Source: a virus
Taxonomy: Duplodnaviria > Heunggongvirae > Uroviricota > Caudoviricetes
Length of the DNA stretch: 64,000 bases
Reading direction: 5' to 3' (one strand)
Virus record (IMG/VR): IMGVR_UViG_3300045051_000909
Span: 64,001-128,000 of that record
Made by a program: the position numbers and the translations under genes. Of this stretch, positions 2,557-14,089 are shown piece by piece. Positions within the stretch are counted from its first letter, which is position 1, and the number at the start of each line of letters is the position of its first letter. The notes below the pieces were generated by a model. It was not told where the DNA came from. It worked only from the letters and a program-made list of their open reading frames with translations, and did not search any database.

Positions 2557-3912
2557 ATGCGCGACCAATTTCTACGCGGTGCAGCGACAGCGAGCACCAA
2601 GTTCGCTGTTGACGTCCGTGACGTAGCGATGATGGAGCAGATTCTCCACGCGCTCGTTCCCGCAGGCCAGAAGATGCCGGTTCCGCTAGGCTCCATTACA
2701 GGCCTACATAGCGGTATGACAGATACGGGGGACAGTCCCATCGCGCGGGGCCTTCTTACCGGCGCAGGCATGCATTTTGGGGATCGTGCTGGCCAAGCCG
2801 TTGGTGGTACGGTGGGTGGCCTTGTGGGTACGGGTGCCGGCATGCTTGCCCGCGGTCTTGGCGCTGGCCCGCACGCTGGCGGGAATATTTACAACTTCAG
2901 TTCGCTGCTCGGTAAAGCCTTGGGCGGTTACGTCGGTGCACAGGAAGGTGCACACGCAGGTCAGGCGTTTGCGGATCGCAATAAGCCAAAGCCTGAGCCG
3001 AAGAAGCCCGAAGTCGAGAAGAAGTCCGCACTAGATGAGTTCTTCCTCAAGGAAGCAGCGGGCTTCGGTGCCAAGAGCATGGGCACGATGATGCGCCAGC
3101 AGGCGCTCAACGACGCCTTCCGCGCTGCACCTCGCCAGGGACCGCAGATGCCCGTAGCGCGCCAGGTCCCCATGGTCCAGATGGCACAGCAGAGCGGCGG
3201 TCGCAATATCGCGCTCCCTGGCGCCAACGCGCCGTCGCTCGAGCTCGACATGACGCCGAAGCAGTTCGCCTATGGCTACAAGGGCGGCAGCGAGAAGCAG
3301 GCGTTCACACTATTCGACTTGATCTCGCATGGTGTGATGGGTGCTGCGTGGGGTAACGCTACCTCAAACCCAGAGCACCAGCTACTAGGAACTACGCTGG
3401 GTGCCTTAGGCGGTATGGGGGGTATGGTAGGAGGGGCGCTCACCCCCACAATCCCAGGAAACGGAACACCTAGCATTATTGCCAATGCAATGCGGCCTGT
3501 CGCAGGCGCTGTTGCGGGCGGCGCTCTCGGCGGGGCAGCGACACGACTCCTTCCGCGCCACGAAGAAGAGAAGGGTGCCGCCGACGCTTCGGCTTCCTTC
3601 GGTCTCCAGAAAGAAGCAATTGCGCCGCTCCTCGGCCTTGCTGCTCGCGCCGTGCCGTGGATGGCTCGCACAGCGGTTCCATGGTTGGCCAAGAACCTCG
3701 GCAAGGGCGCTCTCGTCAATGGTGGCATCAGTGCTGGGACGTCTCTGGCCCAAGGACAAGGGGTTGGTCAATCGCTCGCCAGTGGTGTTGTCGGAGCAGG
3801 CGCCGGTATGATCAAAAATCCCGTGCTGAGCGCTGGCGCCAACATGGCAGGCGGCATGGCCGTCGATAAGCTCATGGGTCCTAAAGCATCGATGGGCAAT
3901 GGTCTCAACTGA
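2557..3912 (+). CDS. Gly/Ala-rich multi-module protein with K-x-A linkers (candidate virion internal protein)
   Basis: AGGAG SD; hydrophobic Gly-rich blocks separated by STKFA, EKKSALDEFFLKEAA, SEKQAF, GLQKEA; virion role is inference. Confidence 0.7.
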   Translation: MRDQFLRGAATASTKFAVDVRDVAMMEQILHALVPAGQKMPVPLGSITGLHSGMTDTGDSPIARGLLTGAGMHFGDRAGQAVGGTVGGLVGTGAGMLARGLGAGPHAGGNIYNFSSLLGKALGGYVGAQEGAHAGQAFADRNKPKPEPKKPEVEKKSALDEFFLKEAAGFGAKSMGTMMRQQALNDAFRAAPRQGPQMPVARQVPMVQMAQQSGGRNIALPGANAPSLELDMTPKQFAYGYKGGSEKQAFTLFDLISHGVMGAAWGNATSNPEHQLLGTTLGALGGMGGMVGGALTPTIPGNGTPSIIANAMRPVAGAVAGGALGGAATRLLPRHEEEKGAADASASFGLQKEAIAPLLGLAARAVPWMARTAVPWLAKNLGKGALVNGGISAGTSLAQGQGVGQSLASGVVGAGAGMIKNPVLSAGANMAGGMAVDKLMGPKASMGNGLN

Positions 3913-3920
3913 GATGCCTG

Positions 3921-6900
3921 ATGATCGAATTCGAGAAGGTTGCGCTTCACGCGCTTGACCGTCTTCGGGAGCGGACGCAGCTCGACCCGGATCTGATTCC
4001 TCTGCTCGAGGCCGAGGCTGACCGCGTTTCTAACGAGGTCCCGCCCGGCAAGTACTGGCTGCCGTTGCGCGACGAGCATGGACGGGTCATCGCTATCGCC
4101 GCGTTCAAGACGGTGCAGACCTACTACGGTCACAAGCTCGTCTTGGCCACGGTCCTCGCGCCAACGATGGTGCCACAAGGTACCTCGCTTGAGCACCTGA
4201 TGCACCCGCCACAGTTGGCCAAGGCTGCGGCATATGCTCCGGGCATCAAGGAGAAGGGCGACAAAGGCGACCATACCGACCTTCCCGTTGGTTTGGCTGA
4301 CTTTGTAATCCATAAGCATGACGCCGAGCGCGCGGGGCTGCACTACGACATCCGTATCGGAACACCGAAAAGCGGCCTCATCTCCTGGGCCACTCGTGAA
4401 AACCTCCCAGCACCCGGGGCGCGCATCACGGTCTTCCGTCAACCCGTGCATGAGTATTCATACAAGGACTTTGAAGGGAAGATCGAGTCTGGTTACGGCA
4501 AGGGCGACGTTAAGATCCACGACTCCGGGAAGGCCATCGTTACACAGGTTAAGCCCGAGCTGCTTCAGTTCACGCTGGGTCACAAGAAGTACCCACAGCG
4601 GTTCACCCTGATCCCCTGGAAAGAGGATCAGTGGTTGATGATGAACAGCACGCCTGTCTCACCGATCCCCTATAAGAAGCAGCACTACAAGACGCTTCCG
4701 CCCTCGAAGGCCGAAGACTTCCTGAAGAAGATTCCGACGGGAAGCTCTGTACAAGCGAAGATCGACGGGGCAGCGGGGCTAGTCACCTTCAAGAATGGCA
4801 AACTGGAAGTTGCGTCCTACCGCACGGCGGGGCCGACAGGGTACCCGATCATCCACACTGAGCGCGTCTTCGGTGGTCGCCCGGAAGTATCTCTCCCGGC
4901 ACACCTGAAGGGGACGATCCTTCGCGGCGAAATTTACGGCGTAAGGGACGGCAAGGTCATTCCGCCGCAGGAGCTCGGGGGCATCCTCAACGCAACCACC
5001 AACAACTCGCTAGAGATGCAGAAGGAGCGCGGCATCTCGTTGAAGATGATGGTGTTCGACATCCAGCAGTACGGCAAGAAGCCGACTGCGGGTATGCCAT
5101 ACAATGAGCGTCAGAAGCACGTCGATGAAGTTCTCAAGCATCTCCCGAAGGATCGGTTCCACGTCCCGGAAGAGGCCACGACACCGAAGGGCGCGCTGGA
5201 CCTTTTTCACAAGGTTCGTTCTGGCGGCCATGCGCTTACTCACGAAGGTGTTGTGGTGCACCTGCCTGAAGGTAAGCCCGTAAAGATCAAGTTCGTAGAC
5301 GACCACGACGTCTACATTACTGGCTTCTTCCAAGGAGAGGGCAAGTACGCCAAGGGTCACGTAGGCGGCTTTACCTACGCCTTCTCTAAGGACGGGAAGA
5401 CTGTTGGCCGTGTGGGTACCGGCTTGAGCGATGAATTGAGGAAAGATATGCACGAGAATCCCGACGATTTCATCGGGCGCGTAGCACGCGTGCGTTCACA
5501 GGAAGTGCTTCCCTCCGGGGCACTGCGTGCACCTTCGCTCATTGCTCTGCACGAGGACTACCCCGCCGCCAAGACGGCGGGGGAGATGTTGGAGCAGTTC
5601 CTCATTAAGATCGCGGATGACGCCGTAGCGCCGCAGATCCCCTCACACGAGTACTCGCCTGCGGAACTGCGCCTACTTCAACAGCGCTTTGGCCGTCTTC
5701 AAGGTTACCTGCGGGAGCACGGGGCCTTCGCCGGAACAGGGCACCAGCGCATCGTTATCCCCAAGAACGTATTGACTGAGGCCGACATCAATCAGTTGGG
5801 GTTCAAGCCTGTCAAGATCGCCATCCCTGAATCGGGACAGGATCGTTTTGAGTCTTTCCGGCACCCGGACAACCTCTTCCACATCCACTCGCATCCCGAG
5901 GGGTGGACGATGCACGAGGACCGTCACCCCGCCTCGACGATGCTCATCACCAAGCTTCAGCACCCCTGGGACAAAGCCAAGGCTTTTTTTCAGGGTCTCC
6001 CGCATGTCGTTACTGAGGGTATGCCAGGGCTCTTCTACTACACCAAGGGCAAGGTGCGTGACGCGCGCTCGACAGCGCAGGCAGTGCTCGAGGAAATGGA
6101 TCCTGGTGTCATTAAGCGCTTTCAAAGCTGGAAGCCCTCACCAAGCTATGCGCCGCCACCTGAGGTCACCGAGGAGTTGAAGGCGGCTGCCGAGAAGCTG
6201 TTCGGCGGAAAGGCCGATGGTCGGTCTGACACCGAATTCAATCCTGCGGCAATTGCGGCGGGCGTGCAGGTAGAACGCGAGCATACGTCGAACAAGGCGG
6301 TCCAGAAGGAGATTGCGAAGGACCACCTGTCCGAGGACCCCTCGTACTATCAGAAGCTAGAGAAGATGGAGAAGAAGGGGTTTGAGCAGTTTCTATTGAA
6401 GTCCGCGAAAGAAGCTCCAGCCCCGAAGACCGAGAAGCCGAAGTCGACCGAGAAGCCCAAGGCCGAGCCGCCAAAGAAGGCAAAGCCTGCGCCGAAGCAT
6501 GAGCTCAACATCCCCAAGGATCAACCCAATTACCAGCACACGCAGCTCTTCACAAAGCTGCTCGAAAAATCTCCGGTTCCGGTGAAGCTGGAACCGAAGG
6601 CGTACACGCACCCGGAGGACAACGGGTTTTATGACTTCGTCAACAAGCGGATCAGACTCCTGTCACCAAATCACGATTCCTTGGCACACGAAATAGGCCA
6701 CGCGCAGTACGATGAGACCCCGCTCGGATGGGCGCTGCAAAGTCGTGCCCTGTATCCGCAGATTTGGAGTACTCCGTTCGCGTCAATAGCAGGTGGCGTA
6801 ACATCGGGCCTTCTTCGTGGCTCTGGATCCTTGAAAGGACAGGGTACAGCGTCCCTGCTCAATGAGGCCGCCGGGCTACTAGCACCACTTCTACTTAGCG

Positions 6901-7730
6901 CCCCTGCTTTGTGGTCGGAGTACAACGCTACAACGCGCGGGCGAAAGCTCCTTGAGGGCGTGGGCGCAACGCCTGAGGAACTGGATCACTACGACAAGGG
7001 CCTCTGGAAGTCATATAAGTCATACTTGACCCTCCCGACTATCTCCGCGCTAGGCGGCGCCGTTATGTACGGCCTGAGCGCCTTGAACGCTCCTAAATTT
7101 GGATCAGAGAAAACCGCCGACTGGAAGGACATCCTCCTCGGCGCGGGCAAGGGCGCTGTGTTACCGGGGCTTTTCGGCGCAGCGGCTGGCGCCCTGACGG
7201 ACAGTGAAGACCGGGCGCGTGGAGCCCTGAAGGGTGGCCTCACAGGGGCAGCTATTGGTGCCATCCCCGGCGGGATTCAAGGACACCTCGAAGGCAAAGC
7301 GACAGCCGCTAACCAAGCGCTCTGGGGGCATAAGGATGTCGCCGATCACTATACACAGCAGGCAGGTGACGCAGCTCGGGCTATCGAACGCTGGCAATAT
7401 TCGCCGCCGGATGTGAAACTGCCTCCTGGGGGGCGTACTGCGGTTCGTACGCCGCAGCTACACGACCTAGGTAAGCTATTCGACCGCTACGACTTTCATA
7501 CGCAGCAGGCAGAGCTTGCTAACACGTTGGCGGACCAAGCGCGTGCGCACTGGCAACACCTTGGTGGGCAGGCTGCTGGCATGAACAAGTGGCGGTGGGG
7601 CGCGGTGCCTGCGGGTATGCTCGCGGGCGGGCTCGCAGCCTACGCACCTGAGAAGCCGGAGTGGGAGAGTGGTGGCAAGGTCTCATCGCTTCGGAGGTTA
7701 CTTCATCAAGGAAGCGAAAGTTGTCACTGA
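3921..7730 (+). CDS. multi-domain protein: LigD-type 3'-phosphoesterase + ATP-dependent DNA ligase + DUF5661-like + HExxH metallopeptidase + Gly-rich modules
   Basis: FVIHKHDA..LHYDIRI and HEYSYKDFEG (PE); QAKIDG, EGVVVH, KIKF, GRVGTGL, ALRAP (ligase); GVQVEREH..IAKDHLSEDPSYYQKL (DUF5661); AHEIGH. Confidence 0.85.
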   Translation: MIEFEKVALHALDRLRERTQLDPDLIPLLEAEADRVSNEVPPGKYWLPLRDEHGRVIAIAAFKTVQTYYGHKLVLATVLAPTMVPQGTSLEHLMHPPQLAKAAAYAPGIKEKGDKGDHTDLPVGLADFVIHKHDAERAGLHYDIRIGTPKSGLISWATRENLPAPGARITVFRQPVHEYSYKDFEGKIESGYGKGDVKIHDSGKAIVTQVKPELLQFTLGHKKYPQRFTLIPWKEDQWLMMNSTPVSPIPYKKQHYKTLPPSKAEDFLKKIPTGSSVQAKIDGAAGLVTFKNGKLEVASYRTAGPTGYPIIHTERVFGGRPEVSLPAHLKGTILRGEIYGVRDGKVIPPQELGGILNATTNNSLEMQKERGISLKMMVFDIQQYGKKPTAGMPYNERQKHVDEVLKHLPKDRFHVPEEATTPKGALDLFHKVRSGGHALTHEGVVVHLPEGKPVKIKFVDDHDVYITGFFQGEGKYAKGHVGGFTYAFSKDGKTVGRVGTGLSDELRKDMHENPDDFIGRVARVRSQEVLPSGALRAPSLIALHEDYPAAKTAGEMLEQFLIKIADDAVAPQIPSHEYSPAELRLLQQRFGRLQGYLREHGAFAGTGHQRIVIPKNVLTEADINQLGFKPVKIAIPESGQDRFESFRHPDNLFHIHSHPEGWTMHEDRHPASTMLITKLQHPWDKAKAFFQGLPHVVTEGMPGLFYYTKGKVRDARSTAQAVLEEMDPGVIKRFQSWKPSPSYAPPPEVTEELKAAAEKLFGGKADGRSDTEFNPAAIAAGVQVEREHTSNKAVQKEIAKDHLSEDPSYYQKLEKMEKKGFEQFLLKSAKEAPAPKTEKPKSTEKPKAEPPKKAKPAPKHELNIPKDQPNYQHTQLFTKLLEKSPVPVKLEPKAYTHPEDNGFYDFVNKRIRLLSPNHDSLAHEIGHAQYDETPLGWALQSRALYPQIWSTPFASIAGGVTSGLLRGSGSLKGQGTASLLNEAAGLLAPLLLSAPALWSEYNATTRGRKLLEGVGATPEELDHYDKGLWKSYKSYLTLPTISALGGAVMYGLSALNAPKFGSEKTADWKDILLGAGKGAVLPGLFGAAAGALTDSEDRARGALKGGLTGAAIGAIPGGIQGHLEGKATAANQALWGHKDVADHYTQQAGDAARAIERWQYSPPDVKLPPGGRTAVRTPQLHDLGKLFDRYDFHTQQAELANTLADQARAHWQHLGGQAAGMNKWRWGAVPAGMLAGGLAAYAPEKPEWESGGKVSSLRRLLHQGSESCH

Positions 7731-9141
7731 GCTCAAGCCCCACCAACAGCGTGTAGTTGAGCGCATGCAAGACCCCGATCAGCGCGGCCTGGTGGCCGTG
7801 CACGGTCTTGGCTCGGGTAAGACGCTCACGAGCATCGCTGTTGCTGACGCCCTCAAGCTTCCGGCGGACGTGGTGGTTCCTGCGGCGCTCCAGGGCAACT
7901 ACCAGAAGGAAGTTGCGAAGCACACCGACAAGCCGTTCCCGATGAATCTCCAGAGCCTCGAGCTGACGGCTCGCAAGGGTGGCGGCTCGTTGCAGAACCC
8001 GCTTTTGATCGTGGACGAGGCTCACCGTGTGCGTAACCCCGGGAAGACGCAGTCGGCGTTGATGAAGTCTCCGGCCAGCAAACGGCTACTCCTGACGGGC
8101 AGCTTGATGTACAACCACCCTGGCGACATGGCTGCACCGATCAACTTGGTGGCGGGCTCCGGAACCCTGCCTTCGAAGCAGAACGAGTTTGAGAATCAGT
8201 TTATCCAGGAGCGGCGTATCAGCCCTGGCCTCTGGGGAGAGCTCGTCGGTAAACCGGGCCAGACGAAACTCGAGATCAATCCTCTGATGAAGCCATACTT
8301 GGAGAAGGTCCTCCACAAGTACGTCGACTACCACCCGGGGTCAACGGAGAACTTCCCGCAGACACAGGAACAGACGCTAAAGGTTCCGATGTCCGGGCGG
8401 CAGCGCAAGATCTACGACGCAGTTATGGACGCCGCTCCGCCTTGGGTGAAGGATAAGATTCTTCGGAATCTACCTCCCACGAAAAGCGAAGCAAAGGAAC
8501 TCAACGCCTTCCTAACAGGCATCCGGCAGGTGTCGAACAGCACGGCTGCGTACGATCTGAAGAACCCTGCGGAGAGCCCGAAGATCGACCGGGCTGTGGC
8601 GGAGCTCAAGCAAATGCTTGAGGCGAATCCACGCGCAAAGGCCATCGTCTACTCCAACTTCCTGCCTTCGGGTATCAACCCCTACAAGGCCAAGCTGGAT
8701 GAGCTGAAGGTCCCTTACGGTGAGTTCACAGGAGAGATGCCGCGTCTAAAGCGCGACCAGCTCGTTCGTGATTACAACGAGGGCAAGCTGCGCGCGCTGC
8801 TACTGTCCTCGGCCGGCGGCGAAGGCCTCGACCTAAAGGGTACGCGCCTGATCCAGTTGCTCGAGCCCCACTGGAACGAAGAGAAGTTGAAGCAGGTACA
8901 GGGGCGCGGCATTCGCTTCAAGTCACACGACGACCTACCCCCGGAGGAGCGGAACGTCTTGATTCAGCGCTTCCTCGCGACTAGACCCCGGGCCGGGTTC
9001 TGGGAGAAACTACGTCTCAAGGATCCTGGCACGTCGGTAGACGAGTATCTGCACGACATGGGTGCGCGCAAGGAAGAATTGAAGGGCCAGTTCAAGGCAC
9101 TGCTCGCACAATCGGAAAAGGAGAAGACACATGCTGCGTAA
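7669..9141 (+). CDS. SNF2/SF2 helicase
   Basis: LKPHQQ, HGLGSGKT, IVDEAH, LLTGS, SSAGGEGLDL, QVQGRGIR. Confidence 0.9.
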   Translation: MVARSHRFGGYFIKEAKVVTELKPHQQRVVERMQDPDQRGLVAVHGLGSGKTLTSIAVADALKLPADVVVPAALQGNYQKEVAKHTDKPFPMNLQSLELTARKGGGSLQNPLLIVDEAHRVRNPGKTQSALMKSPASKRLLLTGSLMYNHPGDMAAPINLVAGSGTLPSKQNEFENQFIQERRISPGLWGELVGKPGQTKLEINPLMKPYLEKVLHKYVDYHPGSTENFPQTQEQTLKVPMSGRQRKIYDAVMDAAPPWVKDKILRNLPPTKSEAKELNAFLTGIRQVSNSTAAYDLKNPAESPKIDRAVAELKQMLEANPRAKAIVYSNFLPSGINPYKAKLDELKVPYGEFTGEMPRLKRDQLVRDYNEGKLRALLLSSAGGEGLDLKGTRLIQLLEPHWNEEKLKQVQGRGIRFKSHDDLPPEERNVLIQRFLATRPRAGFWEKLRLKDPGTSVDEYLHDMGARKEELKGQFKALLAQSEKEKTHAA

Positions 9142-9730
9142 CATCGCTGTTTTTTTTTGTCGGTTGGGCGTAGTCGCGTACCTTAGCCTCCGGCTTTACC
9201 AGGTAAAGTCGTGGTTGTATCGCTGGGTGTTCGAGCGCAAGTATCGGGATACGCCGCTTCCTACGTACACCAGTATGGATGACCTGGTGGCATTCATCCA
9301 CAAGCTAATCTGGGTAGCCGATTCCTGGCAGCAACTTTGGGACGCATTCTCGTACCCCGGCAAAGTCCAGTGGATCGGGACCGAGGGTGATCGGCGAGTC
9401 GGCGATTGCGATGAGTTCGCGATCTACAGCGCCACCGCGATCCTGAAGGCAAACGCAGCTGGATACCTCAAGGAGTACCGGAATCCGCGCATCCTTACCG
9501 CTTGCTGGATGGACTCCAAGGGAAAGCTGGGAGGCCATAACGTCTGCCTGCTTGAGCGCGACGGTGGGGTCGCTTACATGGATTACGGCGACCCGATTCA
9601 CTTCGACACGCTACAAGATCTGGTCGCGAGCGTTATCGCACGCTACACACGCGAGGAGAACGGCGCGTGTATTGGATGGGGCGTCACGGATCCCGTGACG
9701 CTCCGCCCTATCGAGGTTCACTGGTCCTAG
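9131..9730 (+). CDS. membrane-anchored transglutaminase-like Cys protease
   Basis: N-terminal hydrophobic segment; GDCDEFA, GHNVC, YMDYG give a Cys-His-Asp triad. Confidence 0.65.
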   Translation: MLRNIAVFFCRLGVVAYLSLRLYQVKSWLYRWVFERKYRDTPLPTYTSMDDLVAFIHKLIWVADSWQQLWDAFSYPGKVQWIGTEGDRRVGDCDEFAIYSATAILKANAAGYLKEYRNPRILTACWMDSKGKLGGHNVCLLERDGGVAYMDYGDPIHFDTLQDLVASVIARYTREENGACIGWGVTDPVTLRPIEVHWS

Positions 9731-14015: not shown

Positions 14016-14089
14016 TGCTCTCGGCCGGAGTCGAACCGGCAACCTCACGCTTCGGAGGCGTGCGACCTATCCAGTTGATCGACGAGAGC
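14016..14089 (-). tRNA. tRNA-Arg(CCG)
   Basis: loop CT-CCG-AA. Confidence 0.9.

Follow-up and report, generated by a model that had tools for sequence, protein, structure and literature searches.

Results

Two overlapping genes in an uncultured soil phage

We analysed a 64,000-nt stretch of viral DNA, referred to here as the window, which corresponds to bases 64001–128000 of an IMG/VR virus record of 194,266 bp. The virus is an uncultured soil phage that occurs in rhizosphere metagenomes, and the variant examined here is found in several samples. The window has a G+C content of 58.7% and, based on ARAGORN, contains 38 tRNA genes and one tmRNA gene on the − strand between 11476 and 24751. The locus of interest consists of two + strand open reading frames, ORF-A (3921–7730) and ORF-B (7669–9141). 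A blastn search with the region 3900–9200 gave no match among cultured phages.

ORF-A encodes 1269 aa, and its domain organization was determined from the translation, from Pfam, from tblastn comparison with the closest relative of the locus (contig L001), and from a search of 1.84 billion representatives. An N-terminal domain (aa 1–104), for which tblastn found no match in cultured phages, is followed by a LigD 3'-phosphoesterase (LigD_N, Pfam; aa 131–231) and an ATP-dependent ligase with its OB fold (DNA_ligase_A_M and OB, Pfam; aa 264–540). The next module (aa 536–839) is common to L001 and contains DUF5661 (aa 780–819). Toward the C-terminus lie a zincin-like module (aa ~873–1059), with its HEIGH motif at aa 923 (6687–6701), and a Gly-rich hydrophobic module (aa ~1062–1176) similar to the N-terminal extension of a second relative, L004. 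Stand-alone homologs of about 200 aa were found for the zincin part among the 1.84 billion representatives, where the last 200 aa or so of ORF-A were covered only by a fragment of the phage itself. Viral and metagenome contigs likewise contained no relative of the C-terminal module that would give a second copy of the junction.

ORF-B encodes an SNF2-type helicase of 490 aa, as determined from its translation and Pfam. The protein has the two lobes of an SF2 helicase, the SNF2-related N-lobe (SNF2-rel_dom, PF00176, 50.6 bits with a cutoff of 24.9) and the Helicase_C lobe (PF00271, 53.6 bits with a cutoff of 23.5), and motifs I, II, III and VI are intact (GSGKT, DEAH, TGS, and QxxGRxxR, which reads QGRGIR). 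Its best relatives among cultured phages, from Salmonella phage Arash and Pseudanabaena phage PA-SR01, reach identities of no more than 38% and 35%.

Several unrelated catalytic domains are found within the single polypeptide of ORF-A, and the order of modules is mosaic among relatives in which SNF2 is one of the modules (L001, L041, L007 and L012). The locus is a phage polyvalent protein, with unrelated enzyme modules strung together by short K-x-A linkers. A hydrophobic-x-K-x-A motif, often L-x-K-E-A, is common to the module boundaries (3040, 4215, 5598, 6390 and 7699) and to the leaders of stand-alone helicases; in the six frames of the window it occurs four times (3040, 5598, 6390 and 7699), in each case within a polyprotein gene. 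The motif may be likened to the L-x-E/A sites cut by prohead proteases of the T4 type and to the short leaders that direct proteins to the capsid in those systems.

Location of the frame break

The two reading frames overlap by 62 nt (7669–7730), with ORF-B in the +1 frame relative to ORF-A. Frame 0 of ORF-A reads CTT (7689) CGG AGG TTA CTT CAT and continues to a TGA at 7728. The preliminary description of this DNA had reported the overlap, the +1 frame and the CTT-CGG-AGG at 7689, and had proposed that ribosomes slip on this CTT to make a product of approximately 1740 aa. Its statements about the sequence are all correct: omission of C7692 yields ...GGKVSSL-GGYFIKEAKVVTELKPHQQ, and the joined product computes to 1739 aa.

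The unshifted end of ORF-A, RRLLHQGSESCH plus the TGA stop (7692–7730, + strand), had been said to look meaningless, and by its codon usage it does look non-coding. The coding score across the 62-nt overlap was −7.6 for frame 0 and +2.3 for frame +1, and the tail includes AGG (2.5 per 1000 codons in the phage genome) and TTA (0.6 per 1000, the rarest Leu codon). A codon model built from 86 long ORFs of the phage genome placed the best switch from frame 0 to frame +1 at 7683–7695. On sequence grounds, the change of frame must fall within the 13-nt interval 7692–7704. The slip at 7689 had also been credited with rebuilding the linker across the junction, which it does not do: the FIKEAK half of the linker already lies wholly in the frame of ORF-B, and only the K-x-S-L half lies in frame 0.

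Other apparent long overlaps in the phage genome mostly have a coding signature opposite to that of the helicase junction because the downstream start was called too early in those cases. Three further same-strand overlapping pairs, wholly or partly outside the window, have the same signature as the helicase junction. Long overlaps that look coding only in the downstream frame are seen in the + strand pairs 16358–17038/16941–17462 and 143657–145042/144895–146538 and in the − strand pair 51700–51413/51512–51180 (genome coordinates).

The frame break in separate assemblies

A potential concern with a frame break of a single base is that it arose from sequencing or assembly, so that the locus would be a plain in-frame fusion, as found in the closest relative, L001. 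The preliminary description had listed such an error as an alternative. We compared the window with assembled contigs from three assemblies representing at least two samples. A Logan contig at 24x, possibly from the source sample, is identical to the window across the junction, as are a 557-nt contig from a different sample (window 7368–7924) and the JGI contig L019 from sample 3300044712 (window 6073–7869), each with 0 differences and 0 gaps. No indels are reported, and the break site lacks a homopolymer run. The break is real, and we regard an error at this position as highly improbable. The matching contigs show, at the level of assembled sequence, that this phage population is fixed for the break; copies that are 100% identical say nothing on its age.

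Ancestry of the junction

Searches with the helicase identified 30 distinct relatives, at 36–74% identity; viral, metagenome and genome contigs contained no relative between 74% and 100%. In this family, approximately 11 relatives have an in-frame N-terminal extension of more than 100 aa, approximately 9 have a C-terminal extension, and approximately 12 are stand-alone proteins, the last with a start codon 16–30 codons upstream of the PHQ motif. Homologs had been suggested as a check on whether the two genes are fused or keep the CTT-C. All are fused or stand-alone, and a +1 arrangement at the helicase junction was found in 0 of the 30; L001 keeps the CTT-C and is nevertheless in frame. L004 and L012 contain other ORF pairs that are out of frame with each other; these overlap in the usual start/stop manner and carry no slip motif.

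In L001, which is 74% identical in SNF2, a single ORF begins with the N-domain (65% identical to that of ORF-A), includes the middle module with DUF5661 (56%), and closes with the helicase, fused in frame. The frame-0 end of ORF-A (LAAYAPEKPE ... GGKVSSL; 7632–7691, + strand) is homologous to the stretch of L001 before its in-frame helicase linker. A local alignment of the final 60 residues of ORF-A in frame 0 with the 90 residues before this linker (GGQAAG...LAAYAPEKPE opposite GGSLVG...LATYKPIAPE) scored 41. Shuffled sequences gave a mean of 22.8 (sd 4.0), and 2 of 2000 reached this score; read in the +1 frame, this DNA matched the pre-helicase sequence of L001 at chance level (p 0.59). Further along, frame-0 GGKVSSL matches GVKTASL of L001. 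Homology of the nucleotide sequence to L001 begins at 7690 (69.7% over 1417 nt), and the codons line up across the break, with CGG AGG TTA CTT [C] ATC AAG GAA GCG in the window and CGG GGG TTG CTT CTA AAA GAA GCT in L001. Relative to L001, the window has one extra base near 7704.

A second line of evidence comes from L004, in which the N-terminal extension that precedes SNF2 in frame matches, at 33% over 125 aa (E 6e-4), the Gly-rich module of ORF-A. When the two frames of the window are joined, a single BLASTP alignment crosses the junction to each of these fused relatives, L001 and L004. These sequence homologies demonstrate that the junction descends from an in-frame fusion and that the helicase is a polyprotein module by descent. 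The proposal that the helicase is the last module of the polyprotein is upheld in this evolutionary sense, by the in-frame fusion in L001 and by the homology of the frame-0 end; the accompanying idea that a programmed shift still bridges the two frames did not fare as well, as described below.

The same homologies bear on whether ORF-A and ORF-B could always have been separate genes with a long-standing functional overlap. A start codon with a Shine-Dalgarno sequence is present for ORF-B, and many relatives of the helicase are stand-alone proteins, in line with such a history. The junction homology to the fused L001 and L004 disfavours it: the frame-0 end of ORF-A has its homolog in L001 in a stretch that runs on into the helicase, L004 carries the Gly-rich module as a fusion with SNF2, and the frame-0 tail within the overlap carries no coding signal. 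We consider this history quite improbable.

Candidate sites for a +1 shift

Two CTT_C sequences lie exactly inside the 13-nt interval of the frame change. Site 1 (7689–7692, + strand), the slip site of the preliminary description, would have CGG as its A-site codon. Site 2 (GGAGG-TTA-CTT-C; 7693–7704, + strand), which had not been noted before, consists of an SD-like pentamer, a 3-nt spacer, and CTT followed by C, with CAT in the A site. The pattern of site 2 is unique in the window, where 0.69 occurrences are expected by chance, and the base that the window has in excess of L001 falls at this site. A slip at site 2 would give ...KVSSLRRLL-IKEAKVVTEL, matching RGLLLKEAALLTDL of L001. At both sites the zero-frame CTT has a pyrimidine after it. 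An SD-like purine run 3 nt before the CTT is present at site 2 (GGAGG, 7693–7697), where the same bases are Gly-Gly codons of the +1 frame; CTT 7689 has no SD-like element at this distance. As a prfB-type signal, site 2 would be formally the better candidate of the two.

The A-site codons are not those expected of such a signal, there being neither a stop nor a slow codon at CGG or CAT. The codon after CTT 7689 had been taken to be slow, an assumption contradicted by the frequency of CGG (14.5 per 1000 codons in the phage genome, as common as CGT) and by a phage gene for tRNA-Arg(CCG) at 14016–14089. CAT is used at 10.1 per 1000. The tRNA set of the phage includes five for Leu, those for Arg with anticodons UCU, CCG and ACG, and one for His; ARAGORN found no Arg(CCU) tRNA among them, leaving AGG with no dedicated phage tRNA.

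We also examined RNA folding around the two sites. A local hairpin (UCGCUUC/GAAGCGA plus GGAG/CUUC; 7686–7717, + strand) encloses both CTT_C sequences and has a predicted energy of −11.3 kcal/mol (z −2.95), with 4 of 200 shuffled sequences folding as well. In this predicted structure the internal GGAGG could be masked. For the 125 nt starting at 7686, the predicted fold was not more stable than expected (z −1.83), indicating that there is no downstream stimulator.

From these features one can construct a programmed +1 shift on CUU_C, by which a fraction of ribosomes would make the 1739-aa polyprotein ending in the helicase and the rest would stop at 7730; the slip would take place either at 7701–7704, where the GGAGG 3 nt before the CTT would help as its counterpart does in prfB, or at 7689–7692. 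The fused ancestry and the placement of the linker halves in different frames are consistent with such a shift, as are the position of both sites within the interval, the local hairpin, and the short tail of non-coding appearance that would be made in frame 0. At site 2 there is in addition the geometry of prfB, with CTT followed by a pyrimidine and the weak and very rare UUA in the E site, and the codon alignment to L001 puts the extra base at the CTT_C of this site. Several observations argue against it, however. None of the 30 relatives has the +1 break, so that neither break nor signal is conserved, and the closest one, L001, retains GGGGG-TTG-CTT-C and yet reads through in frame. The A site holds no stop or hungry codon at either position, CGG and CAT both being served by cognate phage tRNAs, and site 1 lacks an SD-like element at the right spacing. 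The GGAGG of site 2 is equally explained by its Gly-Gly coding (GGA GGT), which is also present in L023, and the pattern was spotted after the fact. Reading in frame 0 through AGG-TTA is furthermore disfavoured by codon usage, by about 7 log units. A programmed shift at this locus is in our view possible, though doubtful.

Two other recoding mechanisms were considered and rejected: transcriptional slippage, in that no homopolymer run lies near the site, and bypassing of the T4 gene 60 type, in that no matching take-off and landing codons flank a stop. In L001 the corresponding sequence (5990–6030) reads GGGGG-TTG-CTT-CTA-AAA in frame, and a +1 slip there would run straight into TAA (TTC TAA) and lose the helicase. 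In this respect L001 mirrors the arrangement in the window.

A candidate independent start for the helicase

The consecutive codons GTG GTG (7669–7674, + strand) are the sole start codons that keep the conserved N-terminus of the helicase. From GTG 7672 to ATG 7765 the +1 frame contains no other ATG, GTG or TTG, and a start at ATG 7765 would remove the conserved KPHQQRVV block. The gene call of IMG on the full record uses ATG 7765 and gives a protein of 458 aa that has lost this block; the Logan call and one JGI call both start at GTG 7669. A candidate Shine-Dalgarno sequence, GGAG (7658–7661, + strand), is situated 7 nt before GTG 7669, a spacing within the 5–7 nt most used in the phage genome, which does employ such sequences. 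From GTG 7669 to the PHQ motif there are 23 codons, inside the range of the stand-alone relatives. The preliminary description had named this GTG and its GGAG as a second alternative to the frameshift; both are present as described, and an independent start here would still be the simplest route to the helicase.

Some features of the start are less favourable. The GGAG is weak evidence, SD-like motifs being found at 31% of first starts in the phage genome and also, by chance, at 10% of internal start codons. The leader, MVARSHRFGGY, is without the [AST]-[ST]-L element found in the leaders of several relatives, the SSL of this locus being in frame 0, and the +1 codons 7669–7689 score approximately 4 log units worse in the codon model than the frame-0 codons of the same interval. 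The N-terminal leaders of 29 relatives were too variable for profile scoring of the three candidate readings.

The state of ORF-B also bears on whether the helicase has merely been cut off by a recent frameshift mutation; it would then be expressed little or not at all and be decaying as a module dispensable in this lineage. The break is specific to this lineage, the complete identity of all assemblies leaves its age unindicated, and modules are gained and lost freely in the family. Against this, the 490-codon ORF is intact with all of its helicase motifs, a usable GTG with a Shine-Dalgarno sequence precedes it, and the variant was recovered from several rhizosphere samples. We judge recent disconnection of the helicase to be unlikely.

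Discussion

We favour gene fission, with the helicase initiated at its own GTG 7669, as the explanation of this locus, and assign it a probability of roughly 0.5. In the ancestral state the SNF2 helicase was the last module, fused in frame. A discontinuity of one base would then have arisen within the linker, between 7692 and 7704, in this phage lineage, the probable occasion being exchange of the preceding zincin and Gly-rich modules or shortening of the linker. ORF-A would as a consequence continue for 9–13 junk codons to a chance TGA at 7728, and the helicase would be made as a separate 490-aa protein from GTG 7669, within the end of ORF-A.

Support for fission comes from several directions. 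Three assemblies are identical over the junction, the fused ancestry can be traced through L001, with N-domain, middle module and SNF2 in one ORF, and through L004, and both fusion and separation are common among the 30 relatives. The leader from GTG 7669 has a length that fits the stand-alone relatives, its GGAG has a spacing usual for the genome, this start was chosen by two gene callers, and the overlap has a coding look in the +1 frame only. Other points weigh against fission. A same-strand overlap of 62 nt is unusually long, and initiation at GTG 7669 would have to take place while other ribosomes are still reading through ORF-A; to these are added the chance frequency of SD-like motifs, the missing leader element and the poor +1 codons at 7669–7689. 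Our inference is that the helicase is in fact made by initiation at GTG 7669.

A possible parallel to fission is found in L023 (2890–3040), in which SNF2 is in the −1 frame relative to an upstream ORF of 450 aa with a Gly-rich hydrophobic part. A GGAGG-7 nt-GTG lies about 85 nt inside the upstream ORF, a second GGAGG-4 nt-GTG directly follows its TAG stop, and the junction has no slippery heptamer. L023 may be an independent fission at the same linker, the statistics for the parallel being weak (p 0.086 and 0.024).

Gene fission and fusion by frameshifts in inter-domain linkers are familiar in prokaryotic genomes, where frameshifts also yield long overlaps. The present locus resembles such cases in that one lineage has a fused gene and another has adjacent out-of-frame ORFs, the break being followed by a brief junk tail and preceded closely by a start codon, and we see no difference of substance. 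By analogy, linker fission would be the ordinary reading of the locus.

In the +1 site of Ty1, CUU-AGG-C, CUU is likewise the slipping P-site codon, and a rare AGG is nearby here as well. At site 1, however, AGG is the second codon after CUU (CTT-CGG-AGG) and not the A-site codon, and the system is bacterial. The +1 signal of prfB (RF2) is AGGGGG-3 nt-CTT-TGA-C (PMC12421855). GGAGG-TTA-CTT-C at 7693–7704 shares with it the SD-like element, the 3-nt spacing, and the CTT followed by a pyrimidine. It differs in that the A site is CAT and not a stop, so that there is no built-in pause or autoregulation, in that homologs do not conserve a shift at the site, and in that the gene family is unrelated.

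If fission is the correct explanation, the locus would capture cleanly how the polyvalent proteins of phages acquire and lose modules at their linkers, and the IMG gene call, which loses a conserved motif, would be corrected. A programmed shift, if one did occur, would set the ratio of a 1269-aa repair/peptidase polyprotein to a 1739-aa form with the SNF2 helicase. It would then represent a rare bacterial-type +1 recoding event at a sense codon, in a phage polyvalent protein, and would mean that phages are able to adjust the dose of an optional module in a multi-enzyme protein that is injected or packaged.

Iyer, Burroughs, Anand, de Souza and Aravind described such polyvalent proteins in phages and conjugative elements in 2017, with SWI2/SNF2 as a recurrent module (PMC5512222); virion packaging and delivery into the host along with the DNA are a further feature of the class. 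The locus described here has in common with them the many unrelated enzymatic domains per phage polypeptide, the SWI2/SNF2 module, the embedded peptidase domain and the mosaic composition. It is distinguished by its combination of LigD phosphoesterase, ATP-dependent DNA ligase, DUF5661, HEIGH zincin and Gly-rich hydrophobic modules, by a last module that is out of frame, and by the SNF2 module being seen here with no methylase partner. LigD-type ligase and SNF2 modules are fused directly in different relatives in either order, as ligase-SNF2 in L041 and as SNF2-ligase in L007 and L012, and the occurrence of both orders suggests that the two modules work together.
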